64,000 nt of DNA. Origin: Methanotrichaceae archaeon (lineage in GTDB: Archaea; Halobacteriota; Methanosarcinia; Methanotrichales; Methanotrichaceae). The translations under genes and the position numbers were made by a program. Position 1 is the stretch's first letter, and each line of letters opens with the position of its first letter. The stretch is taken from contig CAVWIG010000028.1 of the NCBI GenBank assembly GCA_963754945.1, positions 96,001-160,000 of the forward strand. Reading direction: 5' to 3'. Shown one piece after another: positions 42,958 through 49,626 of the stretch. A model generated the notes under the pieces. It worked only from the letters and a program-made list of their open reading frames with translations. It was not told the origin of the DNA and made no database searches.

Positions 42958-43845
42958 ATGAATAATTCCGATCGAAGTATGGACCTAACACCAGTTCAAA
43001 GAGATATATTGACCGCACTGATCAACATTCACCGCGGAGAAGGCCGCGCCGTCAAAGGCGAGGAGATTGCAGAGTTAATAGACCGCAACCCTGGGACCAT
43101 TAGGAACCAGATGCAGTCATTGAAGGCTTTAAACCTTGTAGAGGGCGTGCCCGGTCCTAAAGGCGGCTACAGGGCCACTGGCGCAGCCTATGAGGCACTG
43201 AGCCTCGACGCCACCGGTGATGTTGTCGAGGTGCCTGTAGTCAAGAACGGAGTAACCGTCGAAGGCGCGTCGGCCACGGAAATAGTCTTCAACAAGGTCA
43301 TGAAGTCCCAGGATTGCGGCGGAGTGGTCCGCATAATAGGCAACGTCAGGGATTTCAACGTGGGCGATGAGATTGAGATTGGGCCTACGCCGGTTAACAA
43401 GCTCTACATTCGCGGAAAGATATTGGGAAGGGATGACACCATGTCCCGGCTCATCTTCAGCGTTTCGACGATGATCTCCGTGCCAAGGGTCCCCATCAAG
43501 GCAGCAGCACGACGTGCAGTTCACATAAGCCCATCTGCTACCCTCCAGGAGGCTGCCAGGGTCCTGATCCACAACGGCGTTCAAGAGGCTTTAGTGGATG
43601 ACAGTTCTCCAGGCCTTGTCAGCATGACAGATATAACCCGAGCCATAGCCGATGGCAAGACAGACCTCAAGGCCAGCGAGGTTATGACCCGCGGCTTCCT
43701 GACAATCGATTCCGAGGAGCCCATCTACGAGGCCATAAAGATGCTGGGGCGGAATAGCGCAAGCCAGTTGGTGGTCTCCGAATCAGGGACGCTTTGGGGC
43801 ATAATCACCCCGGCTGATCTGGTAAAGTCGCTCACGCCGAACTGA
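42958..43845 (+). CDS. HTH plus CBS-domain regulator
   Basis: VKGEEIA...RNPGTIRNQMQSLK, GPKGGY, C-terminal CBS pair. Confidence 0.88.
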   Translation: MNNSDRSMDLTPVQRDILTALINIHRGEGRAVKGEEIAELIDRNPGTIRNQMQSLKALNLVEGVPGPKGGYRATGAAYEALSLDATGDVVEVPVVKNGVTVEGASATEIVFNKVMKSQDCGGVVRIIGNVRDFNVGDEIEIGPTPVNKLYIRGKILGRDDTMSRLIFSVSTMISVPRVPIKAAARRAVHISPSATLQEAARVLIHNGVQEALVDDSSPGLVSMTDITRAIADGKTDLKASEVMTRGFLTIDSEEPIYEAIKMLGRNSASQLVVSESGTLWGIITPADLVKSLTPN

Positions 43846-44341
43846 TCTCGGTGCCCGGGTGGGCGCCGATTATCCCTTTTTTCAGATTTTCGATATCCTT
43901 ACCGTGGACTATAGCCGTGGGTATGGAGCTGCGCTCGATTATCTTGGCGGCCAGGGGATCGACGGGCGAACGTGATCCTGCCTTCATCTCGGTCTCCATA
44001 GCCATCCTGACAAGCTCTTTGGGAGTCATCCTGGCTATTTTTCGGGCGGATGGGTCAACCTCCGGGTCAGCAGTGTAAACTCCGTCCACAGATGTAGCGA
44101 TGATGAGCCGATCGGCGCAAACGTACTCGGCCAGCAGTGCGGATACCGCATCGGTGGTCTGGCCGGGGCTTACGCCACCCATGACAACGATCTTTCCGGG
44201 CGAGCATAGCCTTGCTGCGTCCTCGTAAGAGGCAGGAATCTCCTTTGGGGCCGCATCGCCCAGGGCAGCGACGAGCAGCATTGCGTTGAGCTTTGTCGCA
44301 CCGATGCCTATCTGGTCGCAGAAGACCTCAGATGTGCCCAA
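43832..44341 (-). pseudogene. pyrH: 5'-truncated UMP kinase
   Basis: CDQIGIGATKLNA, GGVSPGQTTD, DGVYTADP, DPLAAKII; lacks the N-terminal SLGGS/GGG motifs. Confidence 0.85.
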
Positions 44342-44428
44342 ACACATCAAAACTAATCACTCTTATTGGATAAATATGATGATTTTTAGAAAATGAAAAG
44401 TTATAAGCACCGACTTCTCATCAGGACA

Positions 44429-45124
44429 TTATGCCGGTCTAATCTCGGTGCCTTGGTGGTTACTAGTCATCCCTTTTCTCAAGTTCGCGATGTCTCGACC
44501 ATTTACAATGGCTGTAGGGATCGAACTTCGTTCGATTATCTTGGCAGCTAGTGGATCTATTGCGGATTTGGAGCCAGCTTTCATTTCGGTCATCATGGCA
44601 ATCTCTACAAGCTGCTTGGGCGTCATCCTATCAAGCTTCGTGGCCTTGGGGTCAACCTTTGGATCGGCGGTGTAGACCCCCTCAACATTGGTTGCTATAA
44701 TCAGACGATCCGCTCTGACCAACTCCGCAAGCAAGGCCGAGACGGCATCGGTGGTCTGGCCGAGGGCGACCCCACCCATGACCACAACCTTGCCTGGGGC
44801 GCTTTGTTGAGCTGCCTCAAAATAACCGTTGGGGAGCATAGCTGCATCCTCTTTTAGGGCGGCCATCAGCAGGATGGCATTCACCTTGGCAATGTTTATG
44901 CCTATCAGGTCGCAAAAAGCCTCGCTGGCCCCAAGGGCACGGGCCTTTTCGATATAAGTGCGGGCGTACTTTCCGCCTCCAACGACGACGTATATGCTAT
45001 TCTTTTCTCCATTCTCGTTATCAACCTCATTTGCAAGATTATTCAGCTCGTCGGCGTACCTTCTGAGACCATCAGTTTCTTGCTCTGCCAAAATGGAGCC
45101 ACCAAGCGAATATACAATTTTCAT
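44429..45124 (-). CDS. pyrH: UMP kinase paralog (full length, divergent)
   Basis: MKIVYSLGGS, VVVGGG..AR.YI, GGVALGQTTD, GVYTADP, DPLAAKIIERS. Confidence 0.9.
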   Translation of the reverse strand: MKIVYSLGGSILAEQETDGLRRYADELNNLANEVDNENGEKNSIYVVVGGGKYARTYIEKARALGASEAFCDLIGINIAKVNAILLMAALKEDAAMLPNGYFEAAQQSAPGKVVVMGGVALGQTTDAVSALLAELVRADRLIIATNVEGVYTADPKVDPKATKLDRMTPKQLVEIAMMTEMKAGSKSAIDPLAAKIIERSSIPTAIVNGRDIANLRKGMTSNHQGTEIRPA

Positions 45125-45306
45125 GGAATGGTCCATTGCGGGATCTGATAAAAAGCTTACCTGCAATCGTCTGTCGCCTTGTCTAAAGGATAAGACATAT
45201 ATATAATAAATCTAATTCTCATCCCTGGTTACGCGATCAGAGCTATACGTCAGTATTCCTGAGCTCTATGTTAATATAGAGGTCACTAAGTTAGGTGGAG
45301 TTCAAG

Positions 45307-45399
45307 ATGACTGTGAAAAATAGCGATTTCATCAGAATTGGATATATTGAGGGCGCTCGGGTGGCTCTGCTAAAATTGCTCATCGGGGGAGGTGCCTAG
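45307..45399 (+). pseudogene. 30-aa chimeric scar: FKBP-PPIase-like N-terminus joined to PyrB-like C-terminus
   Basis: MTVKNSDFIRIGY-IEG-ARVALLKLLIGGGA*; AGGTGGAG leader; stop 1 nt before the pyrI ATG. Confidence 0.6.
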
Positions 45400-48758: not shown

Positions 48759-48892
48759 TCGATCAACTCCTCGCCACTGAGCAATTTCACTTCCCTTCTG
48801 AGGAGCTGGCAGAACTCGGTCAGATATTCTTTATCATGCACGTTCGCAAAGTGCTCATAGCTCATGAATGCCACTGGTTTACGTTCATCCAT
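48755..48892 (-). pseudogene. 45-aa TIR-domain-like N-terminal fragment
   Basis: MDERKPVAFMSYEHFANVHDKEYLTEFCQLLRREVKLLSGEELIE*; ATGA overlap with the fusion gene. Confidence 0.6.
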
Positions 48893-49079
48893 AGACGGAT
48901 TCCTACCTACTGGTGCAAGATTCAGGCTCTTATTCTTTAAGCTTTTTGTAAGTAAAGTCTATCGAAAATTTTGCAAATTTGTAGGTTTGTGTATTACTTC
49001 TCTTGATTGTTTGCTTTAGCTCTCAGCTAAATTCTGAAGTTCAGTCTGTAAATTTCAAAAAAAAGGAAGTTTAAGAGTT

Positions 49080-49499
49080 CTAGATCTTATCCAGAGCCTT
49101 GACAATATTGCCGAAGATGGCCTTGAGATCGCCCGTGCCGTTTATGTTGGCAACGATGCCCCTCTTGTTGTAGAAATCGATCAGGGGCTGGGTCTGAGCG
49201 TGGTAAGCCTGAAGCCTCTCCTTGACCATATTCCTCGGTATCGTCCTGCCTCTGGTACAGTACAGGTCAGCGCCGCATGCATCGCACTTGCCTGCCACTT
49301 TTGGCGGGTTGAACTGGACGTGGTAGGTTGTTCCGCACTTGCACATTCTGCGGCCTGTCACACGCTTGATCAGCTCAGCGTCGGAAACATCGACATTCAG
49401 GACAACATCGATCTTCTGGCACAGAGCCGGAAGGATCTTGTCCAGAGCCTCTGCCTGGGGAATGGTCCTCGGGTAGCCGTACAGCATCCAGCCTGCCTC
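49080..49499 (-). pseudogene. adk: adenylate kinase C-terminal remnant
   Basis: GYPRT..QA, GRRMCKCG.YH...PP....CD.CG lid, ERL..YH.QTQPLIDFY; no P-loop; compensating indels scramble YQRQDD. Confidence 0.85.
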
Positions 49500-49500
49500 A

Positions 49501-49626
49501 GTTTCGATAGGTTCCAAGATCGCAGCCGCTGAGGCTGCGCAGATCCGGGAACTGATCGAAGCCGGTGTTTATCTAAAAGAGTCTGATTTTGTGAGAGATG
49601 CGACGAAGGAGACAGTAGTGAGATAA
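49501..49626 (+). pseudogene. ribbon-helix-helix (CopG/Arc-like) gene remnant
   Basis: VSIGSKIAAAEAAQIRELIEAGVYLKESDFVRDATKE; no nearby start codon. Confidence 0.55.

Follow-up and report, generated by a model that had tools for sequence, protein, structure and literature searches.

What is a rare, undescribed enzyme-like protein, in which a nucleotide-building domain is joined to a signal-nucleotide cyclase domain, doing between two housekeeping genes of a methanogen? The gene for this protein (PRTase-DAC) lies in a window of 64,000 nucleotides from a Methanotrichaceae archaeon, the whole stretch of DNA that was analysed, in the company of genes of pyrimidine metabolism. The first-pass annotation had counted four intact genes here (pyrH2, pyrI2, a 2TM-TPR gene and PRTase-DAC), all of which are indeed in place, and had joined them into a single pathway.

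The segment from 44330 to 49080, about 4.75 kb, is foreign, and has displaced the native pyrH at its 5´ end, along with the spacer between pyrH and adk. Homology to a genome of the same genus (G001, 92–94% DNA identity) stops at 44329 and restarts at 49081, and the GC content over 46–48.9 kb is 0.39–0.43 versus 0.55–0.59 in the flanking housekeeping genes, the AT-rich core that had been noticed at first sight. The site between pyrH and adk is a hot spot for variable genes in Methanotrichaceae: pyrH adjoins adk in G003 and G010, and an NB-ARC/TPR gene with a small TM gene occupies the site in G001 and G094. The earlier idea of an island, a foreign segment in a variable hot spot with conflict-type modules among its cargo, is therefore retained. 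A repeat that resembles a MITE, about 100 bp long with inverted repeats at its ends (45948..46046), occurs three times in this assembly (89–100% identity) and once in the hot spot of G001. A search for an integrase or att repeats at the island was negative; two transposase genes lie 5–10 kb from it. The right junction is at the end of an AT-rich spacer (48893..49079), of which positions 48893–48962 share 76% identity with the region upstream of the PRTase-DAC gene at locus L039, in a second genus.

The left border is formed by the native pyrH remnant (43832..44350, minus strand), which matches TIGR02076 at positions 56–221 of 222, its first 56 or so codons having been replaced by the foreign segment. 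Its neighbours in the tree of pyrH sequences are G001 and G002, and it shares 95% amino acid identity with G001 pyrH. The truncation is probably recent, since the dN/dS against G001 is 0.088, as low as under purifying selection. Next to it lies pyrH2 (44429..45166, minus strand; the true start is likely the ATG at 45124), a complete xenologous UMP kinase gene of the archaeal type, matching TIGR02076 over model positions 1–221 with 241.2 bits, above the equivalog cut-off of 158.05. It shares 68% identity with the native remnant and 81% with the single pyrH of G010 (genus g9); with the latter and the pyrH2 of L039 it forms one clade (support 100/100). The donor was a lineage of another genus, similar to g9. 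Because the assembly has no other intact UMP kinase gene and pyrH2 clusters with a normal, single-copy pyrH from another genus, it is best read as a housekeeping replacement; losing it would probably kill the cell, and the island would thereby be anchored. It had previously been taken for a paralogous part of a pathway, with a housekeeping role named as grounds for abandoning that view, and a housekeeping role is what emerged.

The island bearing pyrH2 entered the second genus separately. The junctions differ between the window and L039, and the two native pyrH remnants fall with genera g1 and g2, respectively. The tandem of pyrH2 and truncated pyrH recurs in L039, an independent assembly.

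The second pyrimidine gene, pyrI2 (45392..45886, plus strand), is an extra predicted regulatory chain of aspartate carbamoyltransferase (ATCase) without an adjacent pyrB. Both Pfam PyrI domains match (PF01948, 105.6; PF02748, 56.1), and the TIGR00240 score of 167.8 bits exceeds the threshold of 148.55. It is 72% identical to the native pyrI on contig C17, and this genome is alone among 41 family genomes in having two matches. Searches by tblastn with the proteins of the native pyrB-pyrI-FKBP operon on C17 revealed two scars upstream, both on the plus strand: the N-terminus of an FKBP-type isomerase (45295–45351; 68% identity over 19 aa, E=0.002) and the C-terminus of pyrB (45358–45393; 9/12 aa, a match not significant alone). 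The order FKBP-then-pyrB is circularly permuted with respect to the native operon, and longer scars of both genes, in the same order, are found at locus L052, with the pyrB scar at the same place. On this evidence, pyrI2 was torn from a pyrB-pyrI-FKBP operon.

It was predicted that extra pyrH and pyrI genes would accompany PRTase-DAC elsewhere, and pyrH2 and/or pyrI2 do lie beside it in both of the other archaeal loci found, L039 and L052. Together with the adjacency of the genes in the window and the purifying selection on pyrI2 (dN/dS 0.18 against the L052 copy), this favours the single pathway of the first-pass annotation, where the PRTase would convert a base and PRPP into an unusual NMP, pyrH2 would phosphorylate it, the DAC domain would cyclise the product, the 2TM-TPR protein would be the membrane effector and pyrI2 would sense NTP pools. 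A precedent is offered by DAC enzymes that make cUMP-AMP and are paired with TM effectors, as described in one account (bioRxiv 10.64898/2026.08.10.743927). However, pyrI2 is absent from the L039 locus and intact in L052, where PRTase-DAC is frameshifted, and pyrH2 groups with housekeeping genes and has replaced one. It is probable that pyrI2 persists by itself and that neither gene is a step of a pathway feeding the cyclase.

The proposed effector does not fit this pathway either. The 2TM-TPR protein (46059..46871, minus strand; 270 aa) is modular: residues 11–93, with two visible hydrophobic helices, form a widely conserved 2TM module, and residues 79–270 form a conserved TPR-like C-terminal module, with TPR Pfam matches in homologs. 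In the homolog P0029, whose C-terminal module is 65% identical, a TIR domain replaces the 2TM module. The protein itself gave no Pfam match, no PADLOC match and no known receptor or nucleotide-sensing domain. Its association with PRTase-DAC across genomes, which had been expected, did not materialise: at none of the 18 other loci does an intact copy adjoin PRTase-DAC, and L052 has only a 25-codon stub. The conversion of UDP to UTP and the unusual-base chemistry are, in addition, pure conjecture, and the four-gene pathway as a whole is considered very improbable. A synthase–effector pair of the CBASS or Pycsar type was also considered and rejected, both for this lack of co-occurrence and for the TPR-like, unmatched soluble part of the putative effector.

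The PRTase-DAC protein (46977..48758, minus strand; 593 aa) has the architecture originally proposed, with Pfam matches, each above its cut-off, to Pribosyltran (E=1.1e-9) and DAC (E=3.1e-12). Structural modelling divides it into an OPRTase-like fold (residues 1–200), a helical region (200–300), a predicted alpha/beta region (310–440) and a DAC fold (455–593), and the AlphaFold2 models show the OPRTase and DisA/CdaA folds with pLDDT values of 80 and 77. The first domain has a type I PRTase fold, with Foldseek matches to 4paw (E=2.4e-10) and 1lh0. Its PRPP loop, VVLVDDIFMTGRT, is present, with two nearly invariant D residues and an invariant T132 in an alignment of 17 sequences (A1). It scores below both PyrE cut-offs (TIGR01367, 85.7 versus 150.25; TIGR00336, 56.2 versus 106.8); the native pyrE on contig C29 scores 128.8.

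The C-terminal domain matches Pfam PF02457 with 46.6 bits (cut-off 27) and gives a profile match to DisA, and the best Foldseek matches of the model of residues 200–593 are DisA (9y4s) and CdaA (6hvm), at E=1e-5. The DGA motif is kept (KLDGAV, aligned to KMDGAV of DisA), its G and A being invariant and its D nearly so in the same alignment. The RHR motif reads R-K-V in this protein; its core clade shows R-[R/K/S]-x, with only the first Arg invariant, and more distant relatives retain RH. This makes cyclase activity uncertain. This is the sole DAC domain of the genome, and a DAC match was found in one of the 18 other family genomes searched.

What the first description of this architecture missed is that a domain has gone. 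The nearest relatives of PRTase-DAC (75–77% identity) carry an N-terminal TIR domain, which is present in five of the 26 homolog clusters, the closest ones. In the full-length, 793-aa homolog (P0004, at L039), it matches TIR_2 with 37.2 bits, and, in an alignment to solved TIR domains, its NCRDEL motif falls on their WCxxEL region, which holds the catalytic Glu. In the window, the first 44 codons of this domain are left (48755..48892, minus strand; 77% identity to the N-terminal end of the homolog's TIR, across 44 aa) and the catalytic glutamate is missing. The remnant now forms a leader ORF of 45 codons, and its TGA stop shares bases with the ATG that starts PRTase-DAC (ATGA). TIR, the likely killing domain of the protein, was deleted in this genome. 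The TIR domains of P0004 and P0029 show no detectable relation by BLASTP. With TIR gone here and at least three frameshifts in the L052 copy of PRTase-DAC, the system may be in decay.

Decay could be taken further: the genes would be inert, hitch-hiked debris, with nothing but pyrH2 functional now, and part of the arrangement could be a mis-assembly of the bin. The adk side of the island lends itself to this explanation. The native adk remnant (49080..49517, minus strand) is 94% identical in DNA to G001 adk, covers positions 76–214 of 216 of the Adk model, so that about 75 N-terminal codons are gone, and carries a compensated double frameshift according to frame comparison. Five gene remnants had been listed in total, of which those of pyrH, FKBP::pyrB, TIR and adk stand; the fifth, a possible C-terminal ribbon-helix-helix fragment (49507..49626, plus strand), is a weak match (RHH_8 at about 49507–49623, E=0.053, 14.1 bits versus a cut-off of 25.4). 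These remnants, the MITE and the nearby transposase genes all suit debris. As for the assembly, the bin is 87.7% complete and lacks glyS and the 5´ half of adk, and no read or contig bridged the island junctions in run X1, which provided short contigs only. However, these short contigs match five pieces of the island with zero differences, and the tandem of L039 was assembled independently. The ORFs of 593, 270 and 164 aa are all open, the dN/dS of PRTase-DAC is 0.13 against L039 and that of pyrI2 is 0.18, and the stop–start overlap left by the TIR deletion still permits translation. Inert debris is, on balance, improbable.

Beyond the window, the PRTase-DAC family is rare and patchy, with 26 protein clusters among 5.8 billion proteins, in unrelated phyla. 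The link with pyrimidines proposed initially extends far past this locus and is real, since pyrE, pyrF, pyrH or pyrI adjoin PRTase-DAC in nine of 18 loci, in around six lineages (a neighbouring pyrE was counted above the TIGR00336 cut-off). It could reflect pyrimidine homeostasis. PRTase-DAC would then be a second-messenger synthase whose OPRTase-like domain reports the supply of pyrimidine precursors, with TIR and the hot spot being secondary. The pyrF next to PRTase-DAC in G117, a Chloroflexi genome, has no second copy there, which makes this locus look metabolic rather than mobile, and PRTase-DAC is the sole clear DAC-domain protein in G117 and in G118. The middle-plus-DAC module also occurs in proteins of about 780 aa, some fused to AMP-binding or PPDK_N enzyme domains, like ordinary signalling DACs. 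Moreover, the PADLOC search suggested at the outset yielded no system call, no model being significant for any island protein. Such a metabolic role is possible, but rather unlikely. It sits poorly with the rarity of the family, with the finding of PRTase-DAC in this genome alone among the methanogen family genomes searched and with the TIR fusion of the nearest relatives. Conflict-type neighbours also speak against it: SIR2 (ThsA-like) at L045, HepT/MNT and a reverse transcriptase at L003, and PIN and HNH at L046. In L045, two extra pyrE copies, rather than one housekeeping copy, flank the gene.

The reading that we prefer, at roughly even chances, is that PRTase-DAC is a pyrimidine-ligand-gated dinucleotide cyclase that was co-opted with TIR for defence and is disarmed here. 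The OPRTase-like domain would bind a ligand of the pyrimidine pathway (orotate, OMP or PRPP), and binding would gate the C-terminal DAC-like domain, which would make or bind a dinucleotide. In the methanogen clade, the addition of a TIR with the catalytic-Glu motif may have produced a defence protein combining sensor and NADase in one polypeptide, and TIR loss would have disarmed the window copy, which would now resemble the TIR-less bacterial relatives. Several observations count against this proposal. The archaeal loci are only three (window, L039 and L052) and share one common origin, the PRTase domain stays below the PyrE cut-offs, and neither L001 (5.9 kb of flank on one side) nor L003 (8 kb on both sides) has a pyr gene. 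The metabolic look of G117, the lack of a PADLOC match and the failure to find relatives on viral contigs weigh in the same direction, as do the altered RHR motif, the possible decay of the system and the incomplete bin with its unbridged junctions.

A bolder version would make the whole island a mobile, self-anchoring immune module acting through pyrimidine supply. TIR-PRTase-DAC would sense a disturbance of orotate, OMP or PRPP and make a non-canonical dinucleotide; PyrI2 would be its receptor, swapping into the host aspartate carbamoyltransferase and halting de novo pyrimidine synthesis during infection; and pyrH2, together with the destruction of the host pyrH, would prevent the loss of the island. 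This is a speculation that we regard as extremely unlikely.

Several known systems resemble parts of this locus. Prophage e14 integrates into icd and supplies a replacement gene end. In both cases a mobile segment enters an essential gene, provides a functional copy and leaves part of the host gene behind. Here, however, no integrase or att repeats accompany the event, and the foreign gene is complete and immediately adjoins what is left of the host gene. The full-length relatives of PRTase-DAC, with their TIR and conserved Glu motif, recall Thoeris ThsB, TIR-SAVED and BcTir/Tpr (bioRxiv 10.1101/2023.05.26.542521), the last also through the pairing of a TIR gene with a neighbouring TPR gene. 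Unlike in these defence systems, the TIR is deleted in the window and the island has no SAVED, SIR2 or Macro partner.

Among DAC proteins, the C-terminal 140 residues share with DisA, CdaA, CdaM and DacZ the DAC fold, the DGA motif and the first Arg of RHR, whereas the His of RHR is replaced and the scores for the NCBIfam DacZ and DisA models are far below the cut-offs. The N-terminal partner also differs from those of known DACs, being OPRTase-like plus helical plus alpha/beta and not HhH, TM or pyruvate-kinase-like. PanS, with about 150 aa, is a minimal DAC that makes cUMP-AMP and is partnered by a beta-rich S2TM receptor (Panoptoo, PanDA; bioRxiv 10.64898/2026.08.10.743927), and DS-2C has a DACNG-DACNH-DAC arrangement within CBASS (bioRxiv 10.64898/2026.08.10.743927; PMC13640721). 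The word phosphoribosyltransferase has no occurrence in either account. The likeness to PanS/PanE and DS-2C is that of a DAC protein in a variable or defence region adjoining a two-TM protein. However, the protein here is 593 aa long, or 793 aa when TIR is present, and a PRTase domain is among its three further regions, and its TM neighbour is helical, TPR-like and not conserved, with no receptor-domain match, so membership of Panoptoo/PanDA was rejected. Membership of DS-2C was likewise rejected, the match to the DS2_3 model (NF053872) being confined to the DAC core, at 14.6 bits (cut-off 630).

The N-terminal domain has the same fold as PyrE of the Thermus/H. pylori type (PDB 4paw) and PyrE-like motifs, namely FxLxSGxHS, the PRPP loop VVLVDDIFMTG, the DRS arginine and a C-terminal PSxCPxC, but its loop leading from the third strand to the PRPP loop is divergent. 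PurR and PyrR are ligand sensors with a PRTase fold that regulate transcription or RNA, and both NCBIfam models match the PRTase domain weakly. By analogy, a PRTase fold that would read the levels of PRPP or pyrimidine nucleotides is our working model for this domain, with the difference that the output here would come from a DAC-like cyclase domain, alone or together with TIR.

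Between remnants of the native pyrH and adk genes, the window carries four complete genes interspersed with further gene debris. The pyrH remnant (43832-44350, minus strand) retains 172 codons, covering model positions 56-221 of 222. It is followed by pyrH2, a complete second UMP kinase gene (44429-45166, minus strand; TIGR02076, 241 bits against a cut-off of 158), two scars, one resembling an FKBP-type isomerase at its N-terminal end (45295-45351; 68% over 19 aa) and one the C-terminus of PyrB (45358-45393), and a complete pyrI, here called pyrI2 (45392-45886, plus strand). Beyond a MITE-like repeat of ~100 bp (45948-46046) lie the gene for the 2TM-TPR protein, of 270 aa with two N-terminal hydrophobic helices (46059-46871, minus strand), and that for PRTase-DAC, whose 593 aa match the Pfam domains Pribosyltran and DAC (46977-48758, minus strand). 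A 45-codon ORF that is a TIR remnant (48755-48892, minus strand) and an adk remnant without ~75 N-terminal codons (49080-49517, minus strand) complete the region. The ORF map and the domain scans agree with the genes and remnants listed in the first-pass annotation, as does the GC content with its AT-rich core (0.39-0.43 across 46-48.9 kb versus 0.55-0.59 in the flanks). Its RHH fragment, to the right of the adk remnant, is possible, with a weak family match (RHH_8, E=0.053).

Comparison with related genomes places this segment at a hot spot. G003 and G010 have pyrH adjoining adk, in a series that starts with the HrcA-CBS regulator and continues after adk with a membrane-protein gene and glyS. 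In G001 and G094, an intact pyrH is separated from an intact adk by an NB-ARC/TPR gene and a small TM gene; this pair is another variable cargo of the site. G001, of the same genus as the window and with 92-94% DNA identity, loses homology to it after 44329 and regains it at 49081, and the island is therefore delimited to 44330-49080. That the pyrH-adk site is a hot spot with three states among genomes, and that the island is foreign, is well supported. Apparent pyrH truncations in other genomes were rejected, being contig ends in G103 and G079 and frameshifts in G094 and G096.

Several other features of the site and its surroundings were recorded. The STAND-like NB-ARC/TPR and TM cargo (G001, L034:5963-7894; G094, L083:6448-8358) is 61% identical between the two genera. 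The MITE-like element, with ~19-nt terminal inverted repeats, has three copies in the window's assembly, G000 (window, C15:9876-9972 and C9:625-723; 89-100% identity), and one inverted copy in the G001 hot spot (L034:7508-7606). Transposase genes of the DDE_Tnp_1 and Mutator families (33886-35535 and 37570-38763, both minus strand) sit in another AT-richer patch, 5-10 kb upstream of the island. The HrcA-like wHTH and CBS regulator adjoining pyrH (42958-43845) has two paralogs in the assembly (C15:62763-63629 and C13:1412-2280; 70-84% identity), one apparently frameshifted, and relatives also have several copies. On the other side, 49658-51424 (plus strand) encodes a secreted-repeat (Lipoprotein_15) protein of 588 aa that includes a long low-complexity stretch rich in Tyr, Asn, Pro and Ser; a search of two same-genus genomes gave no DNA match to it, and the variable region may therefore reach ~51.6 kb. 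Further away, a 2,312-aa ORF (24281-31219, minus strand) with 13 DUF11 repeats, DUF7507 and CARDB-like domains is probably a giant surface protein.

The window's contig, C28, belongs to a bin of 2.97 Mb (completeness 87.7%, contamination 3.2%). The order to which the bin belongs comprises a single family in the genome set; this and the Methanothrix MAG named as source of the homolog P0004 point to a Methanotrichaceae-like methanogen as the probable host. The assembly places the native pyrB-pyrI-FKBP operon on contig C17 and native pyrE on contig C29; a search of it returned no other pyrH, adk, DAC domain, 2TM-TPR gene or PRTase-DAC gene. The adk 5´ half, glyS and the intervening membrane-protein gene, which follow adk in relatives, are all absent from the assembly. 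Since glyS is expected to be essential, these absences are read as assembly incompleteness or rearrangement: either the region was left unassembled or the contig is rearranged here. Compared with G001, the adk remnant (49080-49517) has ~11 codons in a shifted frame, a compensated double frameshift. A soil-metagenome DNA run, X1, contains 18% of the sampled words, and its short contigs match five island pieces without differences; none spans a junction, and the uncovered parts are uninformative. The search of sequencing runs found no RNA run containing the stretch.

The native pyrH remnant is 95% identical to G001 pyrH with a dN/dS of 0.088, as low as that of the neighbouring regulator gene (0.070), so the truncation is probably recent relative to the split between the window and G001. 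A second instance was found on the metagenome contig L039, where a gene for a TIR-PRTase-DAC protein of 793 aa (75-77% identity to the window's copy) is followed by pyrH2 and a truncated native pyrH. Beyond these, L039 shares its HrcA-CBS, radical-SAM, hisI and nre neighbours with the window. In a pyrH tree of 15 rows, the pyrH2 copies of both loci cluster with the single ordinary pyrH of G010, of genus g9 (support 100/100). The native remnants fall elsewhere, that of the window with genus g1 and that of L039 with G003 of genus g2 (support 97/92). The junctions also differ, with a 78-nt spacer and a remnant start near codon 57 in the window, and almost no spacer and a start near codon 70 in L039. 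The differing remnant clades and junctions together indicate that an island carrying a g9-like pyrH was acquired on separate occasions by two genera, breaking the host pyrH each time.

The island ends show no integrase and no flanking att-like direct repeats, the sole repeats being the homology between pyrH and pyrH2. Entry may have proceeded by one-sided homologous anchoring with an illegitimate second junction. Loss of the island is probably difficult, since pyrH2 is the sole UMP kinase gene left intact in the assembly. This evolutionary reading, comprising a foreign island, a hot spot, xenologous replacement of pyrH and loss of the TIR domain, is well supported. A small island that enters two methanogen genera with its own copy of an essential gene, leaving the host copy broken, illustrates a simple route to the permanent retention of foreign DNA. 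Methanothrix-like methanogens matter for global methane and, to our knowledge, their defence biology is almost unexplored.

The first-pass annotation had proposed that the four intact genes may form a single pyrimidine-linked signalling or defence pathway, with PyrI as one of its parts. The locus L052 speaks against this role of pyrI2. Its order is a PRTase-DAC gene with three or more frameshifts (79% DNA identity), a stub of the 2TM-TPR gene limited to its first 25 codons, then pyrI2, the FKBP and pyrB scars and the start of pyrH2. Its PRTase-DAC, initially taken as a distant subfamily (47%), was reassigned as a frameshifted close relative. The pyrI2 of L052 has 80-82% amino-acid identity to that of the window with a dN/dS of 0.18, and the gene is therefore regarded as maintained. 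Because it is intact where PRTase-DAC has decayed, pyrI2 appears independent of the PRTase-DAC gene. It is absent from L039. Among 41 genomes of the host family, two pyrI matches occur only in the window's assembly, and the nearest relatives of pyrI2 reach 76% identity at most. The segment 45295-45886 (FKBP 5´ end, pyrB 3´ end, pyrI) is a circular permutation of the native pyrB-pyrI-FKBP order; in L052 (770-1565 for pyrI2 and scars) the scars are longer, in the same permuted order. A pyrB'-pyrI-FKBP' fragment that passed through a circular or tandem-duplication intermediate would fit this arrangement.

The 2TM-TPR gene is intact beside PRTase-DAC in none of the 18 other loci that hold a core family member, and it is therefore treated as a separate or optional cargo gene. 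The protein consists of two modules, the 2TM part (residues 11-93) and a conserved TPR-like part (residues 79-270) with an invariant SKNYSxASASLRK motif. In P0029, the TPR-like C-terminal module (65% identity) is preceded by a TIR domain instead of the 2TM module, and conflict proteins typically show such exchanges of TIR for a 2TM module on a shared sensor-like domain. The TIR domains of P0029 and of P0004, the full-length PRTase-DAC homolog, compared as a Rosetta-stone test, have no significant BLASTP similarity. A complex prediction for PRTase-DAC with 2TM-TPR residues 95-270 scored 0.01, giving no answer either way. The 2TM module (window 46593-46841) recurs, at 60-70% identity, at the N-terminus of most of the 1,472 proteins that the search returned, and these end in receiver (REC), pYEATS or other C-terminal domains; this conservation is unusually high for a membrane segment, and the module matches no Pfam family.

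The PRTase-DAC family is small: 5.8 billion protein clusters were searched and yielded 26 proteins, the window's own included. An N-terminal TIR domain is present in five (757-803 aa, 75-77% identity to the window's protein) and absent from 20 (378-626 aa, 38-53% identity). Full-length members occur in three species-representative genomes (Sedimentisphaerales, Chloroflexi and Desulfobacterales MAGs). P0004 is attributed by a public source to a Methanothrix MAG; it has 38 contigs on record, and L039 provides the locus evidence. Scans of viral contigs returned no relatives of PRTase-DAC or 2TM-TPR, and the ESM Atlas yielded no usable match. A DAC domain is found in the window's assembly only in PRTase-DAC and in the 18 other genomes of the host family searched as one weak match, and in nine of nine genomes of a sister family.

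AlphaFold2 models (pLDDT 80 and 77) predict four regions: an N-terminal OPRTase fold (best matches PDB 4paw and 1lh0), a helical region, an alpha/beta middle and a C-terminal DAC fold (DisA, CdaA). The PRTase domain retains the FxLxSGxHS motif, PRPP loop, DRS arginine and PSxCPxC tail of the Thermus / H. pylori type of PyrE, and scores under both pyrE cut-offs. The loop preceding its PRPP motif contains, at residues ~102-113 (~48420-48455), an insertion of ~11 residues near AWDGTKATGG that the closest homologs lack. The DAC domain retains the DGA motif and the first arginine of RHR; the histidine is replaced (R-K-V in the window, R-[R/K/S]-x in the clade), with RH retained in more distant relatives. 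A middle-plus-DAC profile matches 343 cluster representatives at E<=0.001. Many of these relatives (P0159-P0264) are ~780 aa long, retain RH and carry the ~300-aa module at the end of ~460-aa N-terminal regions without a Pfam match; of ten scanned, one is fused to AMP-binding and one to PPDK_N. The middle domain as a degenerate second DAC is unsupported (hhalign probability 10%).

The TIR domain of the full-length form aligns with solved TIR domains, and the glutamate of the WCxxEL-type motif, presumably catalytic, is present as NCRDEL. In the window, ~155 codons of this domain are deleted. The 45-codon ORF corresponds to the first 44 TIR codons (77% identical to L039), and its TGA stop overlaps the new ATG of the 593-aa ORF (ATGA). 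The deletion thus leaves the window's PRTase-DAC without its would-be effector domain; the protein can still be translated and is akin to its TIR-less relatives.

In nine of the 18 loci, representing about six lineages with close relatives counted once, a pyrimidine gene adjoins PRTase-DAC: pyrF in L002 and L053, pyrE in L043 and L049, a tandem double pyrE in L040 and L041, pyrE on both sides in L045, pyrH2 in L039, and pyrI2 with pyrH2 in L052. The pyrimidine link is therefore well supported. The neighbouring pyrE genes exceed the TIGR00336 cut-off in all five cases scanned, and in G117 the adjoining pyrF is the only one in the genome. No pyr gene was seen in L001, L003, L042, L044, L046, L048, L050, L051 and L054; in four of these, the visible flank is <1.5 kb. 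A SIR2 protein (L045; ThsA-like, 3e-16), HepT/MNT with a reverse transcriptase (L003), and PIN and HNH proteins (L046) are among the other neighbours. Pyrimidine biosynthesis neighbours in several phyla lead to the testable idea that a pyrimidine precursor gates the dinucleotide cyclase. PRTase-DAC would then be a dinucleotide cyclase gated by a pyrimidine ligand, which a TIR domain arms in methanogens and which is disarmed in the window, a reading to which we give roughly even chances. Its main rival is a purely metabolic role of the family. The single pathway built from all four genes is unlikely.

A PADLOC scan of all island proteins and several neighbours, the defence-model check suggested in the first-pass annotation, gave no system-level match. 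Its minor matches were a weak PRTase_III-A, a spurious DruE on PyrI and TIR-TM for P0029. Full-text searches of the literature found no paper describing a PRTase-DAC protein; Galperin's 2023 census of DAC architectures may list one. A role of DAC domains in anti-phage defence has been reported only in preprints of August 2026 (bioRxiv 10.64898/2026.08.10.743927, PMC13640721), which describe two forms, DS-2C (DACNG-DACNH-DAC, inside CBASS) and the minimal PanS with an S2TM-beta effector. Phosphoribosyltransferases go unmentioned in both texts. PRTase-DAC is placed as a new variant among DAC-domain signalling or defence proteins, and not in CBASS, Pycsar, Panoptoo or DS-2, and its combination of OPRTase-like and DAC-like domains, with TIR in methanogens, represents a third architecture beside the two known defence DAC forms.
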